A stretch of DNA of 64,000 nucleotides from Candidatus Magasanikiibacteriota bacterium (GTDB taxonomy: Bacteria; Patescibacteriota; Patescibacteriia; Magasanikbacterales; UBA922), in assembly GCA_003510435.1 (NCBI GenBank), contig DOMK01000018.1, forward strand, positions 14,121-78,120, given 5' to 3'. Position numbers and translations under genes: made by a program. The notes beneath the pieces were generated by a model. It did no database searches. It saw only the letters and a program-made list of their open reading frames with translations, and was not told where the DNA came from. The number at the start of each line of letters is the position of its first letter. The stretch's first letter is position 1. Of the stretch, positions 11,943 to 59,790 are shown piece by piece.

Positions 11943-12073
11943 ATGACGACGAAAATACTAGATTATTAAACTATTTTCAAATATAATTCATTGTTCAACC
12001 AGAGAAATGGGTCTGTGGTTGAAAACGTTCCTTACTACCCCGCTACCGAGGGCTGATATCGGAGAAAGGGGAA

Positions 12074-12340
12074 ATGATGAGCGGACGAATTTTAATGAAC
12101 GAATACTACTGCACCAACAAAGGATGTATATGGTATTCAGCAGAATTACACAAGGACAAAAAGTATTGCCCAAAATGTGGTTCTCCGGTTGAGTTTGACG
12201 GGGGAGTTCAGTGCCAGTGTGGTGTTAAGTATGCGAGCGGCGAAGAAGGTTTTTGTTCCAAGTGTGGTCGTCCGTTGTCCGAAGCAACGCCCATCACGTC
12301 GCAGAAAGGTTTTTGGTCCCGCATGTTTCATCGTAAGTAA
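12074..12340 (+). CDS. Double zinc-ribbon protein (GC-rich cassette gene 1)
   Basis: 88 aa with four CxxC/Cx4C pairs (CTNKGC, CPKCG, CQCG, CSKCG). GGAGAAAGGGG Shine-Dalgarno. Local GC about 50%. Confidence 0.55.
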   Translation: MMSGRILMNEYYCTNKGCIWYSAELHKDKKYCPKCGSPVEFDGGVQCQCGVKYASGEEGFCSKCGRPLSEATPITSQKGFWSRMFHRK

Positions 12341-12355
12341 TTGGAGAATAAATAC

Positions 12356-12685
12356 ATGAGCAAAGCCTCCAGACACTACAAAGTAGTACGATTACCTAGA
12401 ACGATGACGCCAAAAGAACTGTCTGAATTTGTAGGGGGAATTAAACCGCCACCAAATTCATCTTCTTACCGCGTAGCTGGCCCAACAGCACTAGCTACTT
12501 GGACAATTTTGGGAGGAGGAAAGCACAATAATACTAAGGTAGTTTTTGGCAGTGGCAATCGCTTTGGTAATCTGAGAGATAGGACAGTAATGTCAAGCAC
12601 TCCATGGAGTGTCCTTCCAACCAGACGAAAGACTGTCAACTGGGCAAAAGGAACGTGTGTCCTTCTTATGTCCTTCATCCATTAG
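12356..12685 (+). CDS. Hypothetical protein (GC-rich cassette gene 2)
   Basis: Met at 12356 preceded by a GGAG Shine-Dalgarno. No recognisable domain. Confidence 0.4.
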   Translation: MSKASRHYKVVRLPRTMTPKELSEFVGGIKPPPNSSSYRVAGPTALATWTILGGGKHNNTKVVFGSGNRFGNLRDRTVMSSTPWSVLPTRRKTVNWAKGTCVLLMSFIH

Positions 12686-12760
12686 CGTCGCCTGACCGCG
12701 TTTCAAATAGTCAGGCACTACATCCCTCCGTATAAATATTTTGTACGGAGAGATACAAAA

Positions 12761-12789
12761 AAACATCCCGATTTAATCGGGATGTTTTT
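12761..12789. terminator. Bidirectional rho-independent terminator; member of the tcccgattaaatcggga palindromic repeat family
   Basis: aaacatcccgatttaatcgggatgttttt: 9-bp stem flanked by an A-run and a T-run. Sits between the cassette and the rpsR 3' end. Confidence 0.6.
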
Positions 12790-12792
12790 ATG

Positions 12793-12810
12793 CCTGCCTG
12801 CGCAGGCAGG
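12793..12810. repeat. 18-bp perfect palindrome cctgcctgcgcaggcagg (GC-rich REP-like element)
   Basis: Perfect inverted repeat. A related cctgcct..ggcaggcagg element occurs at 33948-33968 inside a CDS. Confidence 0.4.
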
Positions 12811-13544: not shown

Positions 13545-13576
13545 AGAAGATATAATTAATAATTAATTTTCAATTT

Positions 13577-13617
13577 ATCCCGATTAAATTCGGGATCCCG
13601 TGCTATGTCGGGACAAT
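13577..13617. repeat. Two adjacent palindromic hairpins between rpsF and ssb
   Basis: atcccgattaaattcgggat plus atcccgtgctatgtcgggacaat. The second hairpin recurs at 33443-33465; the first at 12765-12785 and 34802-34820. Confidence 0.5.
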
Positions 13618-13674
13618 TTTCATTTTATAAATATTTTGAAAATTGAAAATTGGTTTTTATAATTTGTTGTATTA

Positions 13675-18922: not shown

Positions 18923-18954
18923 AGACTCCCCATAAAGGAGTTTTTTATTTTTTG
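18923..18954. terminator. Terminator hairpin actcc-N7-ggagt followed by a T-run (shared motif actcccca[ct]aaaggagttttt)
   Basis: agactccccataaaggagttttttattttttg. The same motif recurs at 22737-22761. Confidence 0.5.
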
Positions 18955-20396
18955 ATTCTTACAAAATTCTGGTCAGCATTCACTTCTACTACGTCACCAG
19001 TTTGAAATAATTTTGTTGCCAAACCAGTACCAACAATACAAGGCACACCAATTTCACGCGATAATATAGCCGCATGGCACATTATTCCACCTTGATCAGT
19101 CACTACTGCCCCAGCCAATCTCAGAGCAGGGACATATTCCGGGCTCGTCATAGTTGTTATCAAAACTTCGCCTTTTTTAATATTTTTAATTTCACTAGCC
19201 TCGCGAATAATCCGCACTTTACCAATATAACAACCAGCCGAAGCCGTCACACCCAAAAGTAAAGATTTTTTATTTATTACTATTTTTTTGTGTTCCATTA
19301 AAATTTTACTTGCTTCTGCACCCAAAAATATTTTTATGCTATTCTGATTAAATACAAATAAACTGTTGATACTTCTATTTTTTAATTCATCATCTTTTAC
19401 AAAAAGATTATTTAATAAAGCTTTTTCTAATTCTTTTGGCAAATAATATTGCATCAATTCGCGTTGGATATTTAATCTCTTGGCAATTTCTTCTAGTAAA
19501 CCCACAATGTAATAATGAACCAGAGTAAATTTTCCTTTTTTATAATCTTGCAAATAAGTAGCCAAACGTAAATTATTAAACAAATCTTTGTGTACTTTAT
19601 CAATTTTATATTTTTTTTCTAATTCTGTTTGCTGTTTTGGTAATTGATTAAAATATCTTTTGCTACTTAGTAGCCGACTTTCCATATCACCTTGTTTTAA
19701 AATGTGATCCAGCACGATAGAAAAATATTTTTCATTCCACAGATCCAATCCATAATCATAGGGTAACCAAGAATATTTTTGGGCATGTATTTTGATTACT
19801 TTCTCCAAATTAATATTTTTTTTGTTTTTAATTTTTAAAGCAATATTTAACAAATCATCTTCTTCCTGTTTGGCAAAAGATTTTTCTCGTGGGGCTGAAA
19901 GAATTGAATAAGTGGTTGTTAATTCTTCTGAATTATTAATTTTTTTACTTAAATATTCTTTTAAATAGCTACCCAATGACTCTTCTAAACCCAAAACTAT
20001 CGGCTCACTCCAAGGATAAGCTTGCTTATACAACTTTAAATACTTATCAAACATCTGCCAAAGTTCCTGATTGGTTTTTTTATTTAAATTAGTTTTATAA
20101 ATACCAGAAGCCAATTTGGCTAACGGCAACATTTTTTGATTATATTTTTTAATAATTTTATTTAAAAAAATTTTATCTTTTTTAACCAAGACCAAAGCTT
20201 GTTTGGCGACTTTTTTTACTCCAGCTTCCGAAGCATACCAGTACATTACCCCATTCAAATATTCCACCAGAGTAATTCCAAAAGATAGACCCAAAGAATC
20301 TTGCATATTTTTACAATAGGATTGGGCAATAATATATGCATTAGGTATTAAATGAATTCTCTCTTTTTGTTGCATGAAAATATAATCTTTATTCAT
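18945..20396 (-). CDS. PEP-utilizing enzyme mobile (swivel) domain protein
   Basis: C-terminus GGIMCHAAILSREIGVPCIVGTG....GDVVEVNADQNFVRI is the phospho-His swivel domain (PF00391-like). N-terminal ~380 aa unassigned. Confidence 0.7.
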   Translation of the reverse strand: MNKDYIFMQQKERIHLIPNAYIIAQSYCKNMQDSLGLSFGITLVEYLNGVMYWYASEAGVKKVAKQALVLVKKDKIFLNKIIKKYNQKMLPLAKLASGIYKTNLNKKTNQELWQMFDKYLKLYKQAYPWSEPIVLGLEESLGSYLKEYLSKKINNSEELTTTYSILSAPREKSFAKQEEDDLLNIALKIKNKKNINLEKVIKIHAQKYSWLPYDYGLDLWNEKYFSIVLDHILKQGDMESRLLSSKRYFNQLPKQQTELEKKYKIDKVHKDLFNNLRLATYLQDYKKGKFTLVHYYIVGLLEEIAKRLNIQRELMQYYLPKELEKALLNNLFVKDDELKNRSINSLFVFNQNSIKIFLGAEASKILMEHKKIVINKKSLLLGVTASAGCYIGKVRIIREASEIKNIKKGEVLITTMTSPEYVPALRLAGAVVTDQGGIMCHAAILSREIGVPCIVGTGLATKLFQTGDVVEVNADQNFVRIKK

Positions 20397-20401
20397 AAAA
20401 T

Positions 20402-21889
20402 TTAATTATTATTTTGTGGAGTAAGAATCCTTACTGTGCCATGATTAGCTCGCACAGCCACAACATCACCAGTCTTAATTTGGGTAGTGGCGGTGTGAGT
20501 ATCTATTATACATGGTTTACCAGCCAAACGAGCATTAATAGCGGCATGACAAAGCATTCCCCCAGCATTAGTAATTATGGCCCCGGCTTTTTTTATAATT
20601 TCTAACATTTTGTCATCAGTCATCTCGGTAATCAAAATTTCTCCAGCCTGAAACTTTTTTATATCCTCGGCTTTTTCTATCACCCGAGCAACACCTTGGG
20701 CATAGCCCTGTGCCCCCACCTTGCCAGCAATGGCTCGACCCAATTCACTTTGCTGTAAAATTTCTTGCAATTCTTCATAAACTTTTTTAACTTCCACCCC
20801 TTCAATAATTTTGTAATCCTTACCCAATACCGAAAGCAAAAAACCCTGACTAAAACGATTTTTTAGAATTTGTTTTTTTATTAAGCCACGCAACAAATTG
20901 TCCAATTCTTCAAAAGTCAAAAAAAATAAATATTTCTCATCAATGCCTGAAATTTTTGCCAGCAGTTTAAATAGCTTAATCCACAACTCTTGAACTTGCA
21001 AATTAACTCCCTGCCGATATTCGCGCCATTGTCCCAACTCTTTAAAAAACTCCAAAGGATTGGTATCCAATTTATATTTTTTCAAAATTATCATGGTCAA
21101 CTGGCGGTGTTTTTTGGCACGCGCAATCTCCTCTTTGGTATTTTTATTTTTGTCTAAAACTTTTTCACTGGTTAAAAGTTCAGCAATTTCCATTTGCGAA
21201 AAATTATAAATCTTGCCAATTCGTGCTACTTCTTTGTTGTCATAGCCCAAATCAAAACTATCAATAAATATTGCTGTAGACCAAAACTTTTCCAAAATGC
21301 TTTGCCATTGTTTCAAAAATTCTAATAATTCATTTGTATCCCATTCTGCTGGTAAACCAGTCGCATATTCCTGGCAAAACGCTTCTACTTTTTTTCCATA
21401 ATCAAAAAAACTTTCTTTTAGTTCAAAATGTCGCCGGCTTAATTCTCCATATTCTTTATAAACACTTTCTGCCATCTCTGCAAATGCCAAGGTAGTGTGC
21501 CAAAAAACCTCACAAGTGCCATTTTTAAAATACACATCACAAGTCCCCAGACCCTCATCAAAAAATTTGGGGTTAGGATGAACAATACCAGTAATTCTGG
21601 GCCAAAAAATGATCGGGCTTAAAGCCAATATTTGCCGATACATTTTGGGAGCACTCTCTTCGCTTTGTTTTGGTTCAAACTCCACAATATCATTAATTTT
21701 CAGACCATATCTTTCGCACAGCTTGTCCAGGGTGGAAAACCAGACTCCTTCAGCTTTGCCATGAAAAAGTGCAGTAATAGTATTGCGATTTATGCCAGTT
21801 TCTTGGCTAATTTCAGACATATTCTTGCCAAGTTTCTTAGCAATGGTATGGATTTTTAGTTTAATCATACTTTTTTTCAGTGGAATCAT
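20402..21889 (-). CDS. XRE-type HTH fused to a PEP-utilizing enzyme mobile domain
   Basis: N-terminal HTH (IAKKLGKNMSEISQETGINRNTITALFHG). C-terminus AGGMLCHAAINARLAGKPCIIDT...GDVVAVRANHGTVRIL is a swivel domain with the catalytic His context. Confidence 0.7.
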   Translation of the reverse strand: MIPLKKSMIKLKIHTIAKKLGKNMSEISQETGINRNTITALFHGKAEGVWFSTLDKLCERYGLKINDIVEFEPKQSEESAPKMYRQILALSPIIFWPRITGIVHPNPKFFDEGLGTCDVYFKNGTCEVFWHTTLAFAEMAESVYKEYGELSRRHFELKESFFDYGKKVEAFCQEYATGLPAEWDTNELLEFLKQWQSILEKFWSTAIFIDSFDLGYDNKEVARIGKIYNFSQMEIAELLTSEKVLDKNKNTKEEIARAKKHRQLTMIILKKYKLDTNPLEFFKELGQWREYRQGVNLQVQELWIKLFKLLAKISGIDEKYLFFLTFEELDNLLRGLIKKQILKNRFSQGFLLSVLGKDYKIIEGVEVKKVYEELQEILQQSELGRAIAGKVGAQGYAQGVARVIEKAEDIKKFQAGEILITEMTDDKMLEIIKKAGAIITNAGGMLCHAAINARLAGKPCIIDTHTATTQIKTGDVVAVRANHGTVRILTPQNNN

Positions 21890-21997
21890 TAATAATCAGT
21901 GTAATCAATGTTACGCATATTATAGTATATTCAGATAACTTTGTCAATATTTCACAGTTTTTGTAATGGTTTTATTACAAAAATGACCATAATATCA

Positions 21998-22026
21998 TTG
22001 ACAATTAGGGGAAAAATGATTATAAT
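21998..22026 (+). promoter_or_regulatory. Perfect-consensus sigma70 promoter TTGACA-17-TATAAT
   Basis: TTGACA 21998-22003, 17-nt spacer, TATAAT 22021-22026. Drives the leader and ORF at 22155. Confidence 0.55.
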
Positions 22027-22033
22027 ATCCTGT

Positions 22034-22154
22034 TTTACCTAGTGGGTAAGACGCTGATCTTTAAAAACTACTGTTTCCTGGAGGGGAATAGTAGAAAAAA
22101 TATTGTTTTACCCAGTTGGTGAAACAAAACGCTCTTTACAACGGAGGACATAAC
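22034..22154 (+). promoter_or_regulatory. ~120-nt 5' UTR with two direct repeats tgttttaccYagtNggtRa...acgct and a GGAGG Shine-Dalgarno
   Basis: Copy 1: ctgttttacctagtgggtaagacgct (22031-22056). Copy 2: ttgttttacccagttggtgaaacaaaacgct (22103-22133). GGAGG lies 8 nt before the ATG. Confidence 0.35.
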
Positions 22155-22580
22155 ATGAGCGACTGGTTTTTGCCGACAATTCCCGAAATTCTTGTCGGGA
22201 AAAAAATCGCATTCGTGTGGCCAGAAGAAAAGGGCCAGAGTGATTGGGAAAAGATAGAAGGATATGGGGCACCGGAACATTTCGTGGCTCGCGACATTCG
22301 CGAGGGGCTGAGCATTCCTCTCGAGAGAATTGATTATATAGTTCTTTACCAGGGAAAATCTGCAATTTGCACGTACAGAATATTGAGATACCTTAAAGCC
22401 TGTGGGTTCCCCGCGAAAAAAGTATTTGTTGCCCTGTGTGGATGTTCAAGGGAAGACCACGAAATCGTCATGAAAGACATGGGTTTCGAAAGTCTCGCAG
22501 GGGTGATTCCAGTACCCTGCCAAGCTTTCCATCATGTGATTTGTCAGTGGGTTCTCGCACACCACGCTTCTCCTTCTTAG
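22155..22580 (+). CDS. Hypothetical protein (GC-rich island, 141 aa)
   Basis: Strong Shine-Dalgarno; local GC about 50% against a ~33% background. No known domain. Confidence 0.5.
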   Translation: MSDWFLPTIPEILVGKKIAFVWPEEKGQSDWEKIEGYGAPEHFVARDIREGLSIPLERIDYIVLYQGKSAICTYRILRYLKACGFPAKKVFVALCGCSREDHEIVMKDMGFESLAGVIPVPCQAFHHVICQWVLAHHASPS

Positions 22581-22736
22581 ATCACTAGGTGCACAACCTG
22601 GATGATCATCGGGTTTTGCTCGATTACCCTTCAAGTCTGCACAGACAAATCGAGCCTTCCATTGTTTTATTCTTCCCTCCTTCGCTCTACCAAGCTACGG
22701 AGGATAATAAAAGGATAAAATTTAGAAAGAAAAAAA

Positions 22737-22761
22737 CAAAACTCCCCACAAAGGAGTTTTT
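22737..22761 (+). terminator. Terminator hairpin aaaactcc-ccacaaa-ggagtttt
   Basis: 8-bp stem followed by a T-run; same motif as 18923-18954. Confidence 0.5.
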
Positions 22762-22784
22762 GTGATATAATATTACCAACACAT

Positions 22785-22809
22785 AACACGAGACACATAT
22801 CACGTAACA
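22785..22809 (-). repeat. Interspersed repeat; 25-nt exact copy (reverse orientation) of 59763-59787
   Basis: rc of aacacgagacacatatcacgtaaca equals tgttacgtgatatgtgtctcgtgtt, identical to 59763-59787. Diverged copies at 27214-27250 and 32891-32920. Confidence 0.6.
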
Positions 22810-22845
22810 ATTGATATGTGATATGTGTTATATGATACGTGAATT

Positions 22846-23940
22846 ATGTTCAACAACCCTTTCCCCAACGCCTTTGGTCTAGATATTGGGGACCTATCAA
22901 TAAAATTAGTTCAACTTAGAAATGTTTCCTTGATCCGTAGGAAGCCAACTTATCAACTAATAAATTTTCGTTCTATAAGTTTACCACCTGGTTTAATTGT
23001 TAATGGTGAATTGCAAAAACCAGAAGAGGTTAGACTGCGTATTCAACGTTTATTAAAAGGTAATAAAAATCAAAAACCAATTACTGACCCATGGGTCATA
23101 TCAGTCTTACCCGAAATGCAAAGCTTTATAAAATTGATTGATACTGAACAAAATATTGAGGATCTGCTAGATGAGGATATAAAAGAACTAGCCAAAAAAC
23201 ATATTCCTTATGATGATGATGGTAGTTATTATGTGGAATGGCAAATTATGCCAAAAGTTGGTGATAAAAATAGAATCCTCATTGGCGCTGTACCAAAAAC
23301 TATTGCTGATAGTTATACTTATTTATTAGAAAGTTTAGGCTTGGGTGTAGTGGCTTTAGAAATTGAGGCCTTGCCCATTGCCCGGTCTATGATTACCGCG
23401 AGTAAAGAATATGAAAACGAAGCCAGAGCCCTTCTAGATCTCGGCGCAGCCAGGTCTAGTTTTATTGTTTATGATCATGACATTGTCCAATTTAGCACGA
23501 GCATTCCTTTTTCTGGAGAAATTATTACCACAGCTCTATCACAACAATTACATGTTAGCCATGAAGAAGCCGAGGCTTTAAAAATAAAACAGGGTTTGGA
23601 ATATAATAAAGGTAATAAAGTGTGGCGAGTAAATACTAAAATAATTGATGACTTGGTCAAAAATATAAAAGATGCCATTGAATTTTATTATTCTCATTTT
23701 TCCAATCCAAATAAAATAACCAGAATTACCATGTGTGGTGGTACGGCTAATATAAAAAAATTAGACAAAATATTATCTACCAAATTAAAAATCACGACTC
23801 GACCCGGGCACCCTTGGAAAAATCTTTCTTCCAACAAATCTATCCCTATGTCCGAAGAAGAGTCTATTAGTTATTCCACTGCTATTGGCCTAGCCCTAAG
23901 GGCGGCTGATAATCCATTTTTTACTTACGACGCTCTATGA
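22846..23940 (+). CDS. pilM: Type IV pilus assembly protein PilM (actin-like ATPase fold)
   Basis: N-terminus FGLDIGDLSIKLVQL; 364 aa; followed by pilN and pilO with overlapping stops and starts. Confidence 0.8.
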   Translation: MFNNPFPNAFGLDIGDLSIKLVQLRNVSLIRRKPTYQLINFRSISLPPGLIVNGELQKPEEVRLRIQRLLKGNKNQKPITDPWVISVLPEMQSFIKLIDTEQNIEDLLDEDIKELAKKHIPYDDDGSYYVEWQIMPKVGDKNRILIGAVPKTIADSYTYLLESLGLGVVALEIEALPIARSMITASKEYENEARALLDLGAARSSFIVYDHDIVQFSTSIPFSGEIITTALSQQLHVSHEEAEALKIKQGLEYNKGNKVWRVNTKIIDDLVKNIKDAIEFYYSHFSNPNKITRITMCGGTANIKKLDKILSTKLKITTRPGHPWKNLSSNKSIPMSEEESISYSTAIGLALRAADNPFFTYDAL

Positions 23941-27113: not shown

Positions 27114-27213
27114 ATTTTTATTTTTAAAAATTAATATATATAAACATTATCATTTCAACCAAAAATAGTCAAATAGCACACTTTATAAAAATTAAACTCC
27201 AAAAACATATAAT

Positions 27214-27250
27214 TTGTGTTATGTGGTTCGTGATATGTGATCGTGTTATT
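27214..27250 (+). repeat. Diverged copy of the gtgttaYgtg..gatatgtg interspersed repeat
   Basis: tttgtgttatgtggttcgtgatatgtgatcgtgtt; about 85% identical to 59758-59790. Confidence 0.5.
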
Positions 27251-30347: not shown

Positions 30348-31799
30348 ATGTGTATTTTGTATATTGTTAATATGACTACAACCAGAACAATCGCCCACAA
30401 TACAATTTACCAAATAATTGGCAAAATATTCTCCACCGCTTTAGGTCTTTTGGCCTTGGGTATGATGACCAGGTACTTGGGCCAAGAAAAATTTGGTTGG
30501 TATATTACGACCATGGCTTTTTTGCAATTTATTGGTATTATGATAGATTTTGGCTTAATTCCAGTCACCTCCCAAATGATGAGTGAACCTGACCATGATA
30601 AAACCAAATTATTCAAAAATTTACTAGGCTTTAGATTTGTAACCGCCATTATTTTCTTAGCATTGGCTCCAGCCATTGCTTTATTTTTCCCCTATAATGC
30701 TGAAATAAAAATCGCGATTGCCATTAGTACTATTACTTTTTTATCAGTCGCCATAAACCAAGTCTTACTGGGTTTTTTTCAAACTAGATTAAAAATGCAT
30801 ATTCAAGCAATTGGCGAAAATATTGGTAGGATCGTTTTGGTGATTGGACTTTGGTTAGTAATCAAACAACAAATGGATTTCATTTCTGTTATGTGGATCG
30901 TAGTTTTAAACAGTGTGGCTTATACCGCTTTTCTATTGTTATCAGCCAAAAAATACACCCCAATATCTTTTGGCTTTGATTGGTCAATTTGGAAAAGTAT
31001 CATGACAAAAATGTGGCCCATTGCCATTTCCATTATTTTCAATGTGATTTATCTCAAGGGCGATACTGTTTTATTATCTATTTTCAAAACTCAAGCTGAA
31101 GTTGGTCTCTATGGTGCGGCTTATCGCGTAATAGATATTTTTTCTCAGACTGCTATGATGATTATGGGTGTTATGCTCCCACTGATGGCATATAATTGGT
31201 CACGCGATATCAAAGACCATTTTAAAAAATATTATCAAATGTCTTTTGACATTCTCATGCTCTTGGCTGTGCCAATTTTGGTAGCTTCTATAATTTTGGC
31301 TGAAAAAATAATTTTATTAGTTGGTGGAATAAAATTTGTAGGTGCCACACCAATTTTACAGATTTTATCTTTAGCTGTTTTTGGTCTTTATCTTGGGGCA
31401 GTCTTTGGTCACACCGCAGTAGCCATTGATAAACAAAAACAAACCATGTGGATTTACATTTCTGATTCTATTATTACTCTTACTGGTTATTTAATATTTA
31501 TTCCCCTCTATGGTATGTACGGCGCGGCCTGGATGACAGTATTTTCCGAACTCTATGCAGGAATTTTATTATGGTTTGTAATAAAAAAACATACAAAAGA
31601 AAAACTAAAATTAAATACTTTTGGAAAGATTATTTTTGCCAGTCTAGTGATGGGAGCCACACTTTTATATTTAAAACAATTAAATATTATTGTGTTAGCC
31701 ATAATTGGTATTGTCGTCTATGGTTTAATATTAATCTTGACCAAGGGAATTTCTAAACAAACGATTTCAGAAATTATTTCTATTAAAAAAGATGTTTAA
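30348..31799 (+). CDS. Polysaccharide biosynthesis protein, MOP/Wzx-type flippase
   Basis: About 12-14 TM segments; the true start is possibly the Met at 30372. Confidence 0.75.
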   Translation: MCILYIVNMTTTRTIAHNTIYQIIGKIFSTALGLLALGMMTRYLGQEKFGWYITTMAFLQFIGIMIDFGLIPVTSQMMSEPDHDKTKLFKNLLGFRFVTAIIFLALAPAIALFFPYNAEIKIAIAISTITFLSVAINQVLLGFFQTRLKMHIQAIGENIGRIVLVIGLWLVIKQQMDFISVMWIVVLNSVAYTAFLLLSAKKYTPISFGFDWSIWKSIMTKMWPIAISIIFNVIYLKGDTVLLSIFKTQAEVGLYGAAYRVIDIFSQTAMMIMGVMLPLMAYNWSRDIKDHFKKYYQMSFDILMLLAVPILVASIILAEKIILLVGGIKFVGATPILQILSLAVFGLYLGAVFGHTAVAIDKQKQTMWIYISDSIITLTGYLIFIPLYGMYGAAWMTVFSELYAGILLWFVIKKHTKEKLKLNTFGKIIFASLVMGATLLYLKQLNIIVLAIIGIVVYGLILILTKGISKQTISEIISIKKDV

Positions 31800-32700: not shown

Positions 32701-34174
32701 CACAATACTGTTTACTGTTTACTGTTTACTGTTTACTTATCTGGCCTGGAAAAATTTTCCCTGGGGACTTTATCTTTTCTTTTTTCTTTTACCAACCTAT
32801 TTAATTAGATTTAATATTGGCCCATTACCTACTACCTTATTGGAAGTTATGCTGTGGATAATTACCATAATCTGGCTAATAAAATATCATTCACATATCA
32901 TATACCACATAACACATACCACAAAACAAAATAAAATATTATTTATTGGAATCGCCGTATTTCTATTATCCGCGACAGTATCTATCTTTACTTCCACAGA
33001 CGTTCGTTCGGCACTCGGAGAATGGAAAGCCTTTTATATTGAACCAATAATATTATTTTTAATTTTGATAACCACTTTTAACCCTAAAAATTACCCACCG
33101 GAACAGACTCAACTGGATCAAAAGATCAAAAGATCAAAAGATCAATTTTCTGTCCGATCTTCCGATCTTCCGATCTTCCGATCTTCGATTATCAACCACA
33201 TAATCTTCGCTCTAATTCTATCCGGACTAATTACTTCAGTATTAGCAATATATCAACACTTCACCGGCTGGATGGTACCATACGCCTTTTGGCAAAACCA
33301 AAACACATTTCGTGTCACAGCTTGGTATGGTTTTCCCAACGCGGTCGGATTATTTTTGACACCACTTTTTCCGTTAGCAATATATGGTCTGAAAGAAAGC
33401 ATAAAAAATAAATCTTTCAATCTTTTCCCGACAGAGTACGGGATCCCGTATTATATCGGGACAATCTTTCAATCTTTAATAAAAATTATTCTTTATTCCT
33501 TATTCCTTATTTTATCTCCACTAGCAATACTATATTCAAAAGGTACCGGTCCACTCATTGGACTTGTCGCTGGCATTGGCATATTATTACTATTTTACAA
33601 AAAAACTCGCTGGCCAACTGTTATTTTAAGTCTAATTTGCCTTTCAAGCCTTTTTAGCTTTTCCAGCCTTTCAAGCCTGAAGAATGAGGTTCTTCTCCAA
33701 GATCGCTCTGGTCAAATTCGTTTATCTATTTGGAACGAGACTTGGCAATTTCTTAAAGACAACCCTATTACTGGCGCTGGTCTAGCTTCCTATCAAGAAA
33801 AAATCAAACCTTATCACACAACAGTTAATGGTGAAGGCATAGAAATTTTTCATCATCCACACAATATATTTTTGACTATGTGGATTAATCTGGGTCTATT
33901 AGGTTTAGCAAGTTTTATTGGAATTTTAGTTTCCTTATTCCTTATTCCCTGCCTCACCGGCAGGCAGGCTTATTCCTTATTCAAAAAAAATGAAAACATC
34001 CCAATCATACAATACTTTCTAACTGCTTCTTTAACAACGATAATTGTCACTGGCTTAGTCGACAGTCCATATATCAAAAACGATCTCTCAATTTTATTCT
34101 GGCTTTTGCCAGCTTTATTAATCATGAATTCGTCCAAATCACAATCAGTGAAATCTTTAAATAAATCAACGTAA
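32687..34174 (+). CDS. O-antigen ligase / Wzy_C family membrane protein
   Basis: HHPHNIFLTMWINLGLLGL motif (H.HN....E.G..G of O-antigen ligases); many TM segments. Contains several in-frame repeat elements. Confidence 0.7.
   Translation: MLTTNTILFTVYCLLFTYLAWKNFPWGLYLFFFLLPTYLIRFNIGPLPTTLLEVMLWIITIIWLIKYHSHIIYHITHTTKQNKILFIGIAVFLLSATVSIFTSTDVRSALGEWKAFYIEPIILFLILITTFNPKNYPPEQTQLDQKIKRSKDQFSVRSSDLPIFRSSIINHIIFALILSGLITSVLAIYQHFTGWMVPYAFWQNQNTFRVTAWYGFPNAVGLFLTPLFPLAIYGLKESIKNKSFNLFPTEYGIPYYIGTIFQSLIKIILYSLFLILSPLAILYSKGTGPLIGLVAGIGILLLFYKKTRWPTVILSLICLSSLFSFSSLSSLKNEVLLQDRSGQIRLSIWNETWQFLKDNPITGAGLASYQEKIKPYHTTVNGEGIEIFHHPHNIFLTMWINLGLLGLASFIGILVSLFLIPCLTGRQAYSLFKKNENIPIIQYFLTASLTTIIVTGLVDSPYIKNDLSILFWLLPALLIMNSSKSQSVKSLNKST
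32706..32733 (+). repeat. Tandem heptanucleotide repeat (tactgtt) x4 in codons 7-16 of the Wzy ligase gene
   Basis: tactgtttactgtttactgtttactgtt; unit length is not a multiple of 3. Confidence 0.7.
32891..32920 (-). repeat. In-CDS copy of the gtgttatgtgg..gatatgtga interspersed repeat
   Basis: rc is ggtatgtgttatgtggtatatgatatgtga; 22 of 25 positions match 27219-27243. Confidence 0.45.
33116..33186 (+). repeat. Inverted pair of 8-nt tandem repeat arrays, (gatcaaaa)x3.5 then (cgatcttc)x4, inside the Wzy ligase CDS
   Basis: Period-8 arrays that are near reverse complements of each other; eight GATC sites in 71 nt. Confidence 0.7.
33426..33465 (+). repeat. Two REP-like hairpins inserted in frame in the Wzy ligase CDS
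   Basis: tcccgacagagtacggga plus atcccgtattatatcgggacaat; the second is about 88% identical to 13595-13617. Confidence 0.5.
33948..33968 (+). repeat. GC-rich palindrome cctgcctcaccggcaggcagg flanked by direct repeats cttattccttattc
   Basis: Related to the 12793-12810 palindrome; flanks ttccttattccttattc / cttattccttattc. Confidence 0.4.
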
Positions 34175-40948: not shown

Positions 40949-41550
40949 AACTAATTCCTACAATTATCCAAGATGAAAGTACTGACGTGGTGCTGATGTT
41001 AGGTTATATGAATGATGAGTCACTCAAAAAAACTAAAAAGACAAAAAAAGTCTGGTTTTATAGTCGCTCAAAAAAACGTCTCTGGCTTAAAGGTGAAACC
41101 AGTAAAAATTATTTATTTGTAAAAAGCATAGACTTTGATTGTGACAAAGATACCATTCTTATTAAAGTAAAACCCGCTGGACCAACCTGCCACACTGGTA
41201 ATTATTCTTGTTTTAAAAAAAAGCCTGAGATAAATCCCTTGGTTGAATTGTTTTCCACAATAGAAGATAGAAAAAAGAATCTACCTAAAAATTCTTACAC
41301 CACCAGTTTATTTAAAGGTGGTATAAATAAAATTATTGGTAAAGTAATGGAAGAAACTACTGAGGTAATTAATGCCTCTATCCGAGAAACAAAAAAACGT
41401 TTAATAGAAGAAACGGTCGATTTACTTTACCACCTTTTTGTTTTATTAAGTAAAAAAAATATTAAATTGGAAGATGTTTTTAAGGAGATTGAAAAACGCA
41501 GAAACAAAAAATCCCGGGCTTCATCTGCGACTACGCCCGGCAAGCCCTAA
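40945..41550 (+). CDS. hisI: Bifunctional phosphoribosyl-AMP cyclohydrolase / phosphoribosyl-ATP pyrophosphatase
   Basis: HisI motif CHTGNYSCF followed by a HisE-like C-terminus. The last ~13 codons are supplied by repeat element R1. Confidence 0.85.
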
Positions 41551-41607
41551 CATCTTTTCTAAAAAAAGACTGACCTGCCCAGCGTAGCTTTAGCGAAGCC
41601 TGGGTTT
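41507..41607 (+). repeat. ~100-nt structured repeat element R1 (second copy R2 at 53926-54035)
   Basis: Conserved blocks gactacgcccggcaagc and tgcccagcgtagctttagcgaRgcYgggtt around a variable loop; outer stem cccgggcttc/gaagcctggg. Overlaps the hisI 3' end. Confidence 0.6.
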
Positions 41608-41705
41608 CTTGCCTTGTGTTTGCGCGCAAGCTTGGGTGCTGGAGTTGGTCCGCGGCTCCAGCACCGCGGGTGACATTCCTATGCCACCATACCCCCTTCT
41701 TGTTG

Positions 41706-42329
41706 TTAGATTGCCAGACACTCTGCGACGATATAGCGATTCATCACCGCCATACCATCGACCATCTCACCCTCCTCAATTCTGTGTGTCTCTACAATCT
41801 TAAAACTACCCCAAAGAACATAATCACGCAAAGAATTCTCTGAAAAGTAGAAATCTTCACGCTTACCCCCGTTACCATTCCCATTTAAGATTTTCACGGG
41901 AAATGGCTCATCACCTTCGGCCACTCTAACAGCCAAAAGCAATGGAGCTCCAAGACACATAACTCTACGCAATTCTCGTACAGATGCCATAATCTCTTGT
42001 ACACTATGCATGTTATGCAATACTCTCCAAGAGAGTACTGCACTAAAATAATCATCTGGAAAAGGAAGCTGAGAAAATCTTTGTACCTCAACAAAATTTT
42101 CCAAACCAATAGTAGCTTGACGAGCCCATGGTCCGTCTACTGCGACAACTTCTCTACCGAGAGATCGCAGAACTGATAGATTTCGCCCTCTCCATGCTCC
42201 CCAGTCCAGAACTGGGTTGCGTTCTGAACTCGTAAGGTGGTGGAGCAGGAATTCTTGACCGGAACCAGCCACGAACCCACTAGGTTCATAGCCGATTTCA
42301 TACTTACTCCCTCCGTGCCACTTATCCAT
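41706..42329 (-). CDS. Class I SAM-dependent methyltransferase-like protein (GC-rich island)
   Basis: Degenerate motif I VLDWGAWRGRN, acidic post-I VAVD, motif II-like region. About 48% GC. Strong Shine-Dalgarno AAGGGAGGAAAAAG. Confidence 0.5.
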   Translation of the reverse strand: MDKWHGGSKYEIGYEPSGFVAGSGQEFLLHHLTSSERNPVLDWGAWRGRNLSVLRSLGREVVAVDGPWARQATIGLENFVEVQRFSQLPFPDDYFSAVLSWRVLHNMHSVQEIMASVRELRRVMCLGAPLLLAVRVAEGDEPFPVKILNGNGNGGKREDFYFSENSLRDYVLWGSFKIVETHRIEEGEMVDGMAVMNRYIVAECLAI

Positions 42330-42414
42330 CTTTTTCCTCCCTTTGTTGGGTTGTAGACTCTACCACAATATCGACTTTACAAATCAATATTATGGTAAAG
42401 TCTATTACATAATT

Positions 42415-44199
42415 CTAACTATATTTTTTTCGCAAAATTTTTCCTGCGCCTACTTCATTTTTTAATTTTAAGTAAGCTTCATCCAACGGCACATTAGCTT
42501 GCGAACCAGGAGCAAAACCACAATCCGGATTTAAAATAATTCTGTTCGGTGCCACATACTGCAAAGCTTTTTCTACTCGTGTCACAATTTCTTCTGGTGT
42601 ATCAATGTGTTCAAATCTGCACTCCACACAACCAAGACCTACTTTAAATTTTTCTGGTAAATTTTTTAAGGCGCTAAAATCACCGGCAACTGGGATGCTA
42701 TATTCCAACACAAATTGATCTACATCAATGGCGCTAATGGCAGAAATAATAGCCTCATAGCCACCTTTACCAATCCAACCTTGTCTACCTTTATTGCGCC
42801 GACATAAATGTAATGCTGTTTCTATTCCGTCAATTCCTTTCACAACTTCATTAACTACTTGACAGGCATAATTTAACTCTTTTTTCGGGTCAGAAAATTG
42901 AGTTCGTAATTCTTTATCAACAAATAGACAAATATGAGGATCATCAATTTGCACAATATTAGCACCAGCCTCCCGTAATAAAATAATTTCATTGCGAAGT
43001 ATAGGAATAAGGGCTTCCACAAAAGCCTCACGAGTTGGATAGGCTTTTATAGATTTTTTTTCATCCCACAATCGTTGACCAAGAAGATAAGGCGACGGCA
43101 GGCACACTTTAATTTTTTTAATAGTATGTAATTTCAAAAATTTTGCTTCACGTGCAAAAAACCCAGGTTTATCATAAACCAATTTTTCTTCCACCGTATG
43201 CCATGAACGGCCATCACTTGAATTAAAATAATGTTTAAAACCAGAAGCTATATTGGCTATTACTCCCACATAAGATTTGCGTCGCCATTCTCCATCAGAA
43301 ATTACATCCAAACCAGCCTGCTCTTGCAGTGCTATGGCATAAGCCACTGCCTTATCCAAAATAGGAGAAAAAGGATCACCCTCATTTAGAATAACATCTT
43401 GAACAAATTGTGGTCGCGGCAAACTACCTACAACACTTGCTGGAAATAGCTGTGAGGCAGGTTTCCAAAATTTTTGAGCATAAGCATAATCTTCCAGAGT
43501 ATCAATTTCAATATAGTCACCATGAGTAGTAACAAAATTAATTTTTACACCTTGCTGAACCAAATAATTTAAATAATGTAAAAGATAAGCACGATTTAGC
43601 GGAATGTTTTTTTCAAACTGAAAATTTTTTGGAAGGTTACAAAAATATTCTTTAAATATTTTAGCACCGGCTCGAGAAAATTTAGCCAAGCCAATAAATT
43701 CTCCTGTTGCCAAATCATCTGGAATTGTGCGGCTAAGAGTAGTAATTAGTTCGCCATCCGCTGTTACTTTTTCTGCATCAATGGAGGGGTGAAGACTACG
43801 ATGTACATACCGAGCACGCCAATCAGTATCTACTGCTATGGTAATATCCGCCGGGCTAGCCAATAGTTTTTTAACAATCTCTGGTTTATACAGAATATCC
43901 GAATATGAGCAGATAAAACCATCGCCCATATCATTTATCGCGTAAAAGAGCGATTTTAAAATATTATTATTTTCCCAATTAGTATTATGTCGAAAAGTAA
44001 AATAAGGATATTGTTTTCTTACAACGTCAATTAAATAACCCCCAATAAAAACAATATCCCGTAGTTCTTTTGCTTGATGCGCTTCCAAAATCCAATCTAA
44101 TATCCTTTTATTGTGAACACGAGTAAAAGTTTTTGGTTCAGTATTAGTTAGATGCTCCAACCGCTTACCACGGCCAGCACCTATAATAATTGTTTTCAT
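42415..44199 (-). CDS. Fusion protein: N-terminal sugar-phosphate nucleotidyltransferase plus C-terminal MetE-like (cobalamin-independent methionine synthase family) Zn-dependent domain
   Basis: N-terminus MKTIIIGAGRGKRLEHLT (G-rich NTP-transferase loop). C-terminus VGSLPRP, VQIDDPHI, LHLCRRN, LEYSIP, NPDCGF align with the MetE C-terminal IGSFPQT, IQIDE, HMCY, ENS, NPDCGL Zn-site motifs. Confidence 0.75.
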   Translation of the reverse strand: MKTIIIGAGRGKRLEHLTNTEPKTFTRVHNKRILDWILEAHQAKELRDIVFIGGYLIDVVRKQYPYFTFRHNTNWENNNILKSLFYAINDMGDGFICSYSDILYKPEIVKKLLASPADITIAVDTDWRARYVHRSLHPSIDAEKVTADGELITTLSRTIPDDLATGEFIGLAKFSRAGAKIFKEYFCNLPKNFQFEKNIPLNRAYLLHYLNYLVQQGVKINFVTTHGDYIEIDTLEDYAYAQKFWKPASQLFPASVVGSLPRPQFVQDVILNEGDPFSPILDKAVAYAIALQEQAGLDVISDGEWRRKSYVGVIANIASGFKHYFNSSDGRSWHTVEEKLVYDKPGFFAREAKFLKLHTIKKIKVCLPSPYLLGQRLWDEKKSIKAYPTREAFVEALIPILRNEIILLREAGANIVQIDDPHICLFVDKELRTQFSDPKKELNYACQVVNEVVKGIDGIETALHLCRRNKGRQGWIGKGGYEAIISAISAIDVDQFVLEYSIPVAGDFSALKNLPEKFKVGLGCVECRFEHIDTPEEIVTRVEKALQYVAPNRIILNPDCGFAPGSQANVPLDEAYLKLKNEVGAGKILRKKYS

Positions 44200-44311: not shown

Positions 44312-44535
44312 ATTTAGTTTGCAATAAAATTCCATAAAAAAACTTCTAACCATAGGTAGAAGTAGTATATAAAACATCTTCCCCTTATGGGTTGGAATTA
44401 CCACCTTGTCTTAAAGATAGGTTGGTAGAGAGTCATTGGGCCAATTCCCTCGTCTCTTCTTGATATAAATTAATTGTCTGTATTTAGATTATCACCACAT
44501 CATTAAATCGTCAAACAACGACTGTGGATAACTAA

Positions 44536-53881: not shown

Positions 53882-53925
53882 CATTGATTACACTGATTGT
53901 GAGTTGAGATTACACAGATTAAAAC

Positions 53926-54035
53926 AAAAAACCCCGGTCTTTGTCTATGACTACGCCCGGCAAGCTAGATAATCTTTATATCAAAGAATTCAGCTTGCCC
54001 AGCGTAGCTTTAGCGAGGCTGGGGTTTTATTTTTG
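53926..54035 (+). repeat. ~100-nt structured repeat element R2 (copy of R1); also a terminator with T-run
   Basis: accccggtctttgtctatgactacgcccggcaagc...ttgcccagcgtagctttagcgaggctggggttttatttttg. Stem positions maintained relative to R1 by compensatory and wobble changes. Confidence 0.6.
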
Positions 54036-58739: not shown

Positions 58740-58886
58740 CTTTTTACTGTTAATAATATTATAGCTTATTTTAGCTATTTTGTCAAATATAGCTGTTTAA
58801 AATGGTTGACGATAAAGCCAAATAACATTAAAATAACTAGTCAAACTATAGTGGTTTGATAACGATCTTTACAAGGAGAAACGAAA

Positions 58887-59237
58887 ATGATCTCAAACGC
58901 GGTTCATACAGATGACCTGAGCGGAGTCGACTGGACGCTTCTTCACCAGGTTCAATTTGGTTTTGACCCCTTTTTCCCCCATGGCGCTTCACTTTTTTTT
59001 GACTACCCAGGAGTACAATGCAACGGGCAATGGACAACCAACATAGTCATTGAAAAATATAGACTAGGTTGGACTGCTGGAATGCTCCAAGGGAAAGAAA
59101 AACCAGATTTCATTCAAGGACTAGAGAAGCTGTCTGGTAAAACTTCTTCAAGCAGAGGAGAACTTAAAAGGCTCAACATAGATCGTGCCTGGCGTGTTTG
59201 GACGTTTCATGTTTTCTACGAACCAGGAAGGGGATAG
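58887..59237 (+). CDS. Hypothetical protein (GC-rich cassette gene 1, 116 aa)
   Basis: AAGGAGA Shine-Dalgarno; about 50% GC; no known domain. Confidence 0.5.
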   Translation: MISNAVHTDDLSGVDWTLLHQVQFGFDPFFPHGASLFFDYPGVQCNGQWTTNIVIEKYRLGWTAGMLQGKEKPDFIQGLEKLSGKTSSSRGELKRLNIDRAWRVWTFHVFYEPGRG

Positions 59238-59238
59238 T

Positions 59239-59625
59239 ATGAAGAAGAACACTGTTCTCGATCCTGAACAGGTCAAAGCCGTCTTTATAGACTGTCTCTT
59301 TCAAGATGGCGAGGATACCACCGACCACATCGGAATCAAAGGCATCACCAAGGACGTCTGGTTTCACTCCAAACGTCTCCAAAGCCACAAGGCCGAGATC
59401 GAAGTGATGCTGGGAGAACTCCCTGACGAATTCAAAAAGTCCGGTGGTGGCTGGTCATTCCTCAAGGCGGACAAAGACAGACACGGCCACCAGTGGACCA
59501 TGCTCCACCAACGTGTAGAACAGCTCTTTATGCTCGGCATGGGAATTGGTAAGGTTCAGTACCAGATGCCGAAAGAAGTATGGCCAGCTCTGCCAGGTGG
59601 CATGCCATACTACATCATCAATTAG
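59239..59625 (+). CDS. Hypothetical protein (GC-rich cassette gene 2, 128 aa)
   Basis: GGAAGGGGA Shine-Dalgarno, start 2 nt after the upstream stop; about 52% GC. Confidence 0.5.
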   Translation: MKKNTVLDPEQVKAVFIDCLFQDGEDTTDHIGIKGITKDVWFHSKRLQSHKAEIEVMLGELPDEFKKSGGGWSFLKADKDRHGHQWTMLHQRVEQLFMLGMGIGKVQYQMPKEVWPALPGGMPYYIIN

Positions 59626-59723
59626 TTTGTCTTTCCATCCTAAACGCTCTTTCATCGTGTGCCGGACACTTCAAACCGGCACTCCCTCAAAGTATTTTAC
59701 TTTATTGAATATTTTGAGAAAAA

Positions 59724-59756
59724 CAAAATCCGCTGATCAGGCAGATTTTATTTTTT
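59724..59756 (+). terminator. Terminator of the GC-rich cassette
   Basis: aaaatccgctgatcaggcagattttattttttg; imperfect palindrome around tgatca plus T-run. An additional 7-bp hairpin gtgccgg/ccggcac lies at 59659-59682. Confidence 0.5.
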
Positions 59757-59760
59757 GTTA

Positions 59761-59790
59761 TGTGTTACGTGATATGTGTCTCGTGTTTTA
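59761..59790 (+). repeat. Interspersed repeat copy (tgttacgtgatatgtgtctcgtgtt)
   Basis: Exact 25-nt reverse-complement match to 22785-22809. Confidence 0.6.

Follow-up and report, generated by a model that had tools for sequence, protein, structure and literature searches.

The boxA element of bacterial leader RNAs is the binding site of NusB/S10, and the leader of Escherichia coli ompA carries a stabiliser hairpin at its very 5' end. As for compact genetic units, phage morons, known from the lambdoid phages, are autonomous promoter-gene-terminator units of deviant composition, and the PeSLs of T4-type phages are mobile cassettes of promoter and stem-loop that lie beside small, novel and rapidly exchanged open reading frames (ORFs). 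The boxA consensus reads GYTCTTTAANA, and the BoxA of suhB, located 6 nucleotides (nt) from the Shine-Dalgarno (SD) sequence, represses translation and in this way leads to Rho termination, with a ParE-like toxin gene being under the same BoxA control (Baniulyte et al. 2017, PMC5725501). Here, we describe a locus that bears comparison with all of these. It lies in a 64,000-nt stretch (the window) of contig DOMK01000018.1 of a Candidatus Magasanikiibacteriota bacterium (assembly GCA_003510435.1), and consists of a promoter, a leader of approximately 122 nt and a 141-codon orphan frame, ORF141. Our principal finding is that the leader contains two tandem copies of a hairpin followed by a boxA-like element, that the same layout recurs in front of several unrelated genes, and that the whole unit occupies a slot whose content differs between closely related species.

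The promoter of the cargo gene (21998..22026, + strand) is TTGACA-17-TATAAT, with 12 of 12 positions matching the consensus, exactly as in the preliminary description of this DNA, and transcription probably starts at G22032, the sixth base after the -10 box, at the foot of the first hairpin. On the + strand there are exactly two instances of the pattern TGTTTTACCYAGTNGGTRA, one at 22031 and one at 22104, each followed by ACGCT. If up to 3 mismatches are allowed, there are 4 hits as opposed to 0.25 expected; since each copy is a palindrome, the two extra hits are these very sites seen from the - strand. In other words, the two direct repeats reported earlier are both present, with the refinement that each of them is itself a hairpin of 9-10 bp. 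The repeat 1 hairpin, TGTTTTACC-TAGTG-GGTAAGACG (22031..22053, + strand; -9.6 kcal/mol, z = -2.9), is followed after 2 nt by the first boxA-like element, GATCTTTAAAA (22056..22066, + strand), whose mean unpaired probability is 0.70. A central 12-bp hairpin with a GGA triloop comes next (22068..22094, + strand; -14.4 kcal/mol, z = -3.8), in which a pyrimidine tract, UUUCCU, pairs with an SD-like GGAGGGG, perhaps what is left of the SD that belonged to the first leader copy. The repeat 2 hairpin, TTGTTTTACC-CAGTT-GGTGAAACAA (22103..22127, + strand; -10.2 kcal/mol, z = -3.7), is separated by the three nucleotides AAC from the second boxA-like element, GCTCTTTACAA (22131..22141, + strand; unpaired probability 0.59), and this in turn lies 1 nt before the SD sequence GGAGG (22143..22147, + strand), 7 nt ahead of the ATG at 22155. 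Every imperfect pair in the repeat stems is a G-U on the sense strand.

Folded as a whole, the leader reaches a minimum free energy of -41.8 kcal/mol (z = -4.6 against shuffles), and the stable structure on which the earlier proposal depended is indeed predicted, with a stability far above that of the shuffles. In the minimum-energy form, repeat 1 and repeat 2 pair with one another as a 96-nt rod around the central 12-bp hairpin, while the state with three local hairpins has a predicted energy of -34.3 kcal/mol and is likelier to be favoured during transcription. In the ensemble, the boxA-like elements are for the most part single-stranded (unpaired probability 0.6-0.7). The unpaired probability of the SD is 0.39, through a 4-bp helix with the preceding CUCU.

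The motif ACGNTCYTTAC occurs exactly three times in the 64 kb (at 12025, 22129 and 58862), always in the sense-strand leader of a GC-rich island and always between the promoter and the start codon of the island gene. The sequence TCTTTACAA followed by GGAG precedes the start codon here, in island 4 of the window and in the unrelated cargo gene of a related species, L096 (labels of this form denote our comparison sequences). A further copy, just outside the window (L109, 3935-3978), belongs to the leader of a 129-aa gene that is transcribed away from a third regulator of the TrmB family; this copy contains the same 11-mer as the second boxA-like element described above, while its SD is weak (AAGG) and lies further downstream. 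The copy in island 1, GTTCCTTACTA, is more diverged. Taken together, five leaders share one layout: a -10 box, N5, a G, a hairpin of 7-10 bp, a linker of 1-4 nt (AAC in three of them) and then G-N-TCTTTACAA, or GNTCTTTACAA in its general form, usually with the SD directly after it. In both repeats, island 4, L109 and L096, the distance from the hairpin to the first G of the element is 2-3 nt. It is because this design of hairpin and boxA-like element recurs that we regard the two direct repeats as two tandem copies of a module. A composite of a hairpin of at least 9 bp, 0-4 nt and GNTCYTTA is found 3 times, as opposed to 0.11 times in shuffles, with 0 of 1000 shuffles reaching 3, both the motif and the test having been defined after the data had been seen.

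What is more, the stems of the different leaders differ and yet stay complementary, with 6 of 9 stem positions changed on both sides, while the loops remain similar (YAGKG: UAGUG, CAGUU, UAUAGUG, UAGGUG and CAGUG) and the tails are kept. These stem pairs were tabulated by hand, and a MAFFT alignment of six leader units fell out of structural register. The neighbours of the module are all regulators, three of the TrmB family and two of the type found here. Outside this set, the scans were negative. A viral pattern scan with the hairpin core returned 73 hits, none of which reaches the second arm and many of which apparently lie inside coding sequence, and these look like chance matches, as do the 7 hits of a scan of public collections for the tail with the SD; the 8 metagenomic hits to the full hairpin pattern include no homologous leader; and no further instance of the module is present on the contig's left flank. 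Four of those 8 are iteron-like GGGTAAAAC arrays, with 5-6 direct and inverted units upstream of a TATAAT (in L082, L083, L085 and L087); they resemble arrays at replication origins or operators and probably have nothing to do with the locus of ORF141.

The second part of the finding concerns the place in which the cassette sits. The locus is flanked by a pilB/pilC block on one side and by pilM-pilN on the other, and the window sequence is also contained within the Joint Genome Institute (JGI) groundwater contig Ga0103682_10000047 (113.7 kb). Divergently from ORF141 runs a gene (20402..21889, - strand) for a 495-aa protein, HTH-PEP, with a Cro/C1-type helix-turn-helix (HTH) at its N-terminus (Pfam HTH_26, 2.9e-11) and a phosphoenolpyruvate (PEP)-utilizer, or phosphohistidine-swivel, domain at its C-terminus (PEP-utilizers, 2.2e-18). 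Its true start is likely ATG 21868, a 488-aa form being on record, and it is the first gene of an operon with the gene of a 483-aa PEP-utilizer protein (18945-20396, - strand). The promoter of this operon (21919..21947, - strand) is again TTGACA-17-TATAAT with 12/12 matches. Between the two -35 boxes lies a perfect palindrome with 10-bp arms, TTTTTGTAAT-N6-ATTACAAAAA (21958..21983), which, judging by its position and sequence, is likely the operator through which the HTH-PEP protein would control both promoters.

Two related species, L095 (JBAYJP010000002) and L096 (UBA11699), carry HTH-PEP proteins that are 84-86% identical to the one studied here. Conserved in both are the pair of 483-aa and 495-aa genes, the - strand promoter and the palindrome, as well as the + strand promoter's -35 box. 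Conservation includes this box and the next 4 bases and then fades within the spacer, and the sequence 3' of the + strand promoter is not kept. In this place L096 carries a gene for a 544-aa protein with a guanine-plus-cytosine (GC) content of 56-63%, and L095 one for a 181-aa protein at 53-60% GC together with a convergent 96-aa ORF. The slot genes of L095 and L096 and ORF141 show no mutual similarity, the outer flanks differ as well, and so do the leaders that come after the shared promoter region in these two species, which are the closest ones. At more distant HTH-PEP loci, the divergent gene, where present, usually encodes a small histidine-phosphatase protein with an RH(G/S) motif, and it is GC-richer (in L099 56%, versus 31% for the HTH-PEP gene) with a strong SD; a small, GC-rich, strong-SD gene in divergent orientation is found at most loci examined, not at L104 or L106. 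As regards the protein family itself (window, L095, L096 and L099-L107), its members combine the Cro/C1-type HTH and the swivel with no kinase or PEP-binding domain, and the operons of their genes encode further proteins of the PEP-utilizer or PPDK_N type. This points to a transcription factor under phosphorelay control, and a search of the literature on the HTH and phosphohistidine-swivel combination found none.

ORF141 itself (22155..22580, + strand) encodes 141 aa with 6 Cys residues and a Cys/His-rich C-terminus, and both the frame and its GGAGG are found where the preliminary description had placed them. When the region is shuffled, only 4 of 2000 sequences contain an open frame of this length, the GC values of the three codon positions (0.55/0.39/0.47) follow the protein-like order GC1 > GC3 > GC2, and RNA structure in the interior of the frame is mild (z = -2.0). 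Because of these features, along with the spacing between SD and ATG, we treat ORF141 as coding, which it probably is. Its composition sets it apart, since it has 47% GC as opposed to 30-36% for its neighbours and a third-position GC of 0.47 as opposed to 0.24-0.32; the measured 47.2% falls somewhat below the "about 50%" given before, and compares with 34.7% for the window, 38% for the leader and 41% for the 3' untranslated region (UTR). The description of the unit as a single gene of foreign composition, with its own promoter, structured leader and terminator, is borne out.

That ORF141 has no known domain also holds, in the sense that Pfam gives a sub-threshold match to DUF364 only (E 0.002) and NCBIfam, PHROGs and PADLOC give none. 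The homologue search that had been suggested covered approximately 15 billion proteins overall, with 5.8 billion clusters searched by word index and 1.84 billion representatives by exhaustive phmmer, and returned ORF141 itself and nothing else; no relative carries it, and tblastn against phages gave nothing significant. The cluster of ORF141 has 3 members that differ solely in the called start, and the product is listed at NCBI as HBU07406.1, a hypothetical protein of a Candidatus Magasanikbacteria metagenome-assembled genome. The whole locus is also found, with 100% identity, on five other contigs, which come from related groundwater samples and therefore provide no comparative signal. A single-sequence AlphaFold (AF2) model has a mean confidence (pLDDT) of 47 and, with low confidence, suggests an alternating beta-alpha, Rossmann-like pattern; against the PDB, Foldseek finds no match at E <= 0.001 and only generic Rossmann-like folds at E > 0.3, and a sequence search reaches E >= 0.09 at best, including an insignificant match to GspL. 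A degenerate RHG (His_Phos_1) phosphatase was considered and rejected, the RHG motif being absent and the hhalign probability 0.3%. If one were to guess from the residues, the product would be a small alpha/beta protein binding a metal or a cofactor through Cys and His. Most simply, ORF141 is an acquired gene behind a host promoter.

How could such a cassette work? The interpretation that we tentatively prefer, and that we would call quite possible while still short of probable, is that it is a lineage-specific, acquired orphan cassette with a leader acting at the RNA level, by way of a 5' cap hairpin and a Nus-type boxA-like site. In this interpretation, the cassette would fill a variable cargo slot located 3' of a conserved, bidirectional control region of HTH and PEP-utilizer genes. 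Its sigma-70-type promoter would belong to the host, given the -35 box in the conserved module, and would probably be governed by HTH-PEP via the palindrome at 21958-21983. A transcript starting at G22032 would begin at the foot of hairpin 1, which would cap its 5' end against 5'-end-dependent decay. The leader would be a tandem duplication of a module that several foreign-looking genes of the lineage use, namely a start G with a hairpin of 7-10 bp, a linker, a single-stranded boxA-like element G-N-UCUUUACAA and an SD. The exposed elements would then load the NusB/S10 (Nus) complex onto elongating polymerase, as in rRNA leaders, and this complex could either protect a gene that is badly adapted against termination ahead of time or act as a gate for its translation, the choice of these two roles being suggested because the boxA-like element abuts the SD, as in E. 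coli suhB.

Several observations bear directly on the boxA part of this proposal. Compared with GYTCTTTAANA, which is a gamma-proteobacterial consensus, the boxA-like elements match at 10/11, 10/11 and 9/11 positions, and the two elements of the GNUCUUUACAA type in the leader (GATCTTTAAAA at 22056 and GCTCTTTACAA at 22131) match at 10/11 each with C4 and U6 intact. As for a ribosomal leader of the same lineage, the one compared is the 23S leader of the relative L095 (381 nt). It carries GATCATTACAATTTACC (GATCATTACAA), with an 11-mer one mismatch away from the cargo-leader motif, with which it shares the lineage-specific A2 and the lone A ahead of CAA, and the chance of such a match is 119 in 5000. 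At L095 9083-9492, that 23S gene has its own TTGACA-17-TACTAT promoter, no 16S before it, and a tRNA and two small ORFs upstream.

That said, a number of points speak against our interpretation. Generic boxA sequences with one mismatch are not enriched in this AT-rich window (27 found, 24 expected), and, as already said, the motif and the composite test were both defined post hoc. The match in the L095 23S leader is mismatched at position 5 and lies inside a palindrome, AATGATCATT, which could occlude it. No boxC-like, GU-rich element follows downstream, the SD and the start codon coming directly after the boxA-like element, and neither nusB nor rho appears in the Pfam tables, which cover parts of approximately 82 kb and leave most window genes unscanned. 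A literature search on this point yielded nothing relevant. No relative carries ORF141 with its leader, so there is no orthologous leader to compare, and a monocistronic transcript of 0.7 kb has little obvious need for processive antitermination. Moreover, CUUUA-type tracts before an SD could be translation enhancers or standby sites, and the hairpins are equally dyad-symmetric DNA sites in an operator-like position, those beside TrmB-family genes sharing a loose half-site (TTCAACCA, TTCCAACA, GTCAAAC) that hints at DNA recognition. Because the element is not enriched, the 23S match is palindromic, boxC is absent and nusB and rho are not established, we take the membership of the leader in the boxA class as a lead with partial support, and not as a result.

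The main rival to RNA-level action follows from the symmetry of the hairpins. Here the repeats would be a pair of DNA operators, at +10 and +83, the primary one overlapping +1 and the auxiliary one 73 bp further downstream, at which a dimeric repressor would clamp an otherwise maximally strong promoter through cooperative binding or looping, in the manner of lac O1/O2. The 9-5-9 dyads at 22031-22053 and 22104-22126, the centre of the first one approximately 10 bp past the probable start, and the distance of 73 bp (approximately 7.0 helical turns) between the two centres all suit such an arrangement, and a perfect consensus promoter would plausibly need repression; what is more, all leaders with the module adjoin regulators, and the loose half-site is common to the hairpins beside TrmB-family genes. 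We nevertheless consider it unlikely. The HTH domain encoded next to the cassette is nearly identical in L095 and L096, the leaders of which have no such dyads, and this counts against the rival; we specifically rejected the repeats as operators of this neighbour, as relatives keep the HTH and not the dyads, and for that protein the palindrome at 21958-21983 is the better candidate. The kept single-stranded tail, along with the fixed register of -10, N5, G and hairpin despite differing stems, fits RNA better than DNA. The imperfections of the dyads are all G-T on the sense strand and tolerate RNA pairing, but this argument is weak because the stems were defined allowing G-U. Alternatively, the leader could be doing nothing at all, being what a tandem duplication of 73 nt, or the insertion of a palindrome, between a native promoter and an acquired gene has left behind, with CTTTACAA-GGAG as the ribosome-binding region of the donor pool. 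Indeed, the two units can be aligned part by part, from the hairpin through the boxA-like element to GGAGG, with the first GGAGG hidden in a hairpin, the generic boxA match is not significant alone, and the cassette is both clonal and orphan, and therefore nothing shows purifying selection. What makes this reading rather unlikely in our eyes is the occurrence of hairpin register, linker and tail in at least 5 independent leaders, with unrelated genes and different stems, in two species, as well as the fact that the window holds no other copy of the palindrome. An element of the miniature inverted-repeat transposable (MITE) or repetitive extragenic palindromic (REP) type was rejected likewise, the copies in the leader being the only ones in the window and the hits in metagenome and viral scans being chance matches or unrelated iteron-like arrays.

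The preliminary description had raised two possibilities for the leader. One of them, a protein-binding site, may hold, and would now take the more specific form of two copies of a hairpin and boxA-like module that other leaders also contain. The other was a riboswitch, and on this point our results are unfavourable. An Rfam 15 scan of the window at gathering thresholds and a scan of 21850-22900 at E <= 10 find no riboswitch or other family in the leader, the only matches touching it at that permissive threshold being rliG and Yfr17, with E of about 5, while the same procedure recovers an S-adenosylmethionine (SAM) riboswitch elsewhere in the window normally. The latter is a canonical SAM-I riboswitch of 64.5 bits (44371-44469, - strand), upstream of a 594-aa gene (42415-44199). 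Moreover, the terminator scan finds no U-tract terminator in the leader, and in neither folded state is the SD sequestered by a strong alternative pairing; because of this, with the SD only weakly engaged, there is no recognisable expression platform. A new RNA sensing a ligand or temperature, be it a tandem aptamer or a switch between three hairpins and the rod, could still be claimed on the grounds that the fold is very stable (z = -4.6), that two architectures lie approximately 7 kcal/mol apart, that the repeat is in tandem with a central hairpin pairing an SD-like GGAGG with a pyrimidine tract, and that the product is Cys/His-rich with a weak match to DUF364, annotated with metal chelation. 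However, the hairpins are simple, with no internal loop or junction that is conserved, viral and metagenome scans did not detect the motif outside the lineage, and the module also precedes unrelated genes, and therefore any ligand would be unrelated to gene function. All this considered, we judge such a sensor very improbable. Still further down the scale, one may suppose that the GC-rich stretch is a structured non-coding RNA gene in which the ORF is accidental. GC-rich islands in AT-rich genomes are often RNA genes, both UTRs are highly structured and ORF141 has no homologue, but the rarity of the frame among shuffles, its protein-like codon GC, the perfect SD and ATG, the weakly structured interior of the frame and the absence of any Rfam match or tRNA-like gene leave this with hardly any likelihood.

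Downstream of ORF141 lies a structured 3' UTR (22581..22762, + strand; z = -4.4), comprising three hairpins and then a terminator-like hairpin, AAAACTCC-N7-GGAGTTTT (22738..22760, + strand), which the terminator scan finds to be bidirectional and which agrees with the terminator reported earlier. The idea that the 3' UTR is a decayed copy of the leader was dropped, as the two align locally with a score of 19, which is unremarkable (129 of 1000 shuffles), and ARAGORN finds no tRNA-like fragment in it. The inverted interspersed repeat also exists as described, 22780-22809 being 93% complementary to 59763-59792. It is part of an inverted pair of four-unit heptad arrays (NTAYGTG; 22780..22841), located between the -10 box and the ATG of pilM, and it belongs to an interspersed family and not to the cassette. 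Members of this family (GTGATAT, GTGTTAC and others) are seen at 22780-22841, 27206-27250, 30880-30909 and 59749-59792, the last of which overlaps the 3' end of a ribonucleotide reductase gene, and the family pattern gives 5 matches versus 0.07 expected. The arrays may be binding sites for a protein.

The promoter, which had been thought unusual for a natural one, is in fact normal here. Namely, the window contains 6 perfect consensus promoters and 5 more with one mismatch, as opposed to 1.2 expected (an approximately 9-fold excess), and these include the divergent one at 21947-21919 as well as those of native genes such as rpoB. It is rather the GGAGG that is atypical for the genome: among 49 crude calls of native genes, 44 have no SD-like motif at -22..-3, and upstream regions are A/T-rich, while the genes of the GC-rich islands carry GGAGG or GGAG. 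In about half of Parcubacteria, the anti-SD motif is reported to be absent (Tsurumaki et al., PMC9297842). Further islets of 45-50% GC with strong SDs lie at 12000-12800, 41600-42400 and 58800-59650. Islands 1 and 4 are divergent from TrmB-family regulators, whose own promoters match the consensus perfectly; the products of island 1 are a zinc-ribbon protein and an orphan, those of island 4 an orphan and a phrog_26039 protein (59239-59625) that is 41-57% identical to proteins of phages of Proteobacteria (Variovorax, Stenotrophomonas, Caulobacter and Klebsiella), and island 3 encodes a methyltransferase.

The window and its surroundings contain other repeated elements too. A GC-rich element of approximately 106 nt, AAACAAAAAAYCCCGG...GCCCGGCAAGC...TGCCCAGCGTAGCTTTAGCGA, occurs at 41502-41607 and 53922-54027 with 80-91% identity. 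Both copies are intergenic or 3' of genes, and the element is possibly a structured RNA of small size or one of the REP-like type. A palindromic element of 42-46 nt, TTATCCCGA...TCGGGATCCCG...TCGGGACAA, is present at 13575-13620 and 33423-33468 with approximately 80% identity. On the same contig, approximately 4-5 kb beyond the right end of the window, there are two tandem structured elements of approximately 150 nt (L109, 4480-4700 and 4950-5170; CCCGCTGG...AAGGAG.TACCAGATGGAGAA.CAAGCGGGACTCCAT-T-run), and after each of them come GGAGGTGCTCTTTGAAAAACC, which is a variant of boxA resembling that of Bacillus, and an SD region rich in GC; Rfam gives no match on L109 3600-5800.

In our view, the orphan, moron-like islet and its promoter are ordinary, and it is the recurrent leader module and the re-filled slot that are not. 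The variable slot beside the HTH and PEP-utilizer operon offers a natural experiment in gene capture. If the module of hairpin and boxA-like element is genuine, it would be the first cis-regulatory RNA motif for foreign-gene expression in bacteria of the candidate phyla radiation (CPR), and BoxA/Nus control of protein-coding genes would extend far beyond gamma-proteobacteria; if, on the other hand, the module is non-functional, what remains is an ordinary orphan islet behind a genome-typical promoter. A question that arises from the locus is how an organism whose native genes lack SDs, and whose relatives often lack the anti-SD, expresses acquired genes that depend on one. One may go further and speculate, although we find this distinctly doubtful, that Magasanikbacteria, and perhaps other Parcubacteria, possess a dedicated module of YAGKG hairpin, variant boxA and SD, which would serve Nus-like or N-like antitermination and translation gating of xenogeneic genes. 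Its targets would be the GC-rich, SD-bearing and mostly orphan genes that lie divergent from regulators in an SD-less genome, and the HTH-swivel operon would be a landing pad with a swapped partner, namely an RHG phosphatase in distant loci and unrelated cargo here.

Finally, the comparison with known systems can now be made point by point. Like a moron, the cassette is a single gene with its own promoter and terminator, of odd composition and absent at the same site in relatives. Unlike a moron, it lies in no recognisable prophage, its surroundings being genes such as pilB/C/M/N, a ribosomal protein gene, rpoB/C and those of ribonucleotide reductase, PHROGs has no match for ORF141, and the -35 box of its promoter belongs to the conserved host module and not to the insert. 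With PeSLs the locus has in common that a short conserved module of promoter and stem-loop recurs beside small, novel ORFs that are rapidly exchanged. In PeSLs, the stem-loop stands before the promoter and the setting is a hyperplastic region of a phage genome, whereas here the break in homology falls within the promoter spacer. As in the ompA stabiliser, the hairpin begins 0-1 nt from the probable 5' end, but a conserved tail follows it, and this is left unexplained by the stabiliser concept. The BoxAs of the suhB type are perfect matches to the gamma-proteobacterial consensus, were validated by chromatin immunoprecipitation (ChIP) and genetics and have no upstream hairpin in their definition, and the host here, in contrast, is a CPR bacterium whose own genes mostly have no SD; in both cases, however, the element is part of the 5' UTR and close to the SD, from which it is separated by 6 nt in suhB and by 0-2 nt here, accessory or mobile genes are among the targets, and the proposed mode of action is translation control coupled to termination. 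The rrn leaders of E. coli precede rRNA, while the module precedes small protein-coding genes, has no boxC, a C and not an A at position 9 and often an A at position 2, is duplicated in tandem and abuts the SD, Nus binding being putative in its case. In its layout, on the other hand, it closely resembles the E. coli rrnG P2 leader, which consists of a TATTAT -10 box, a hairpin GCCGCT...AGCGGC, "ac" and TGCTCTTTAACAA. In both, a strong promoter is followed within a few bases of the start by a hairpin, the hairpin comes before the boxA, and the gap from hairpin to G1, three bases in rrnG P2, is matched here by a linker of 2-3 nt, after which comes a single-stranded G-Y/N-UCUUUA(A)CAA.

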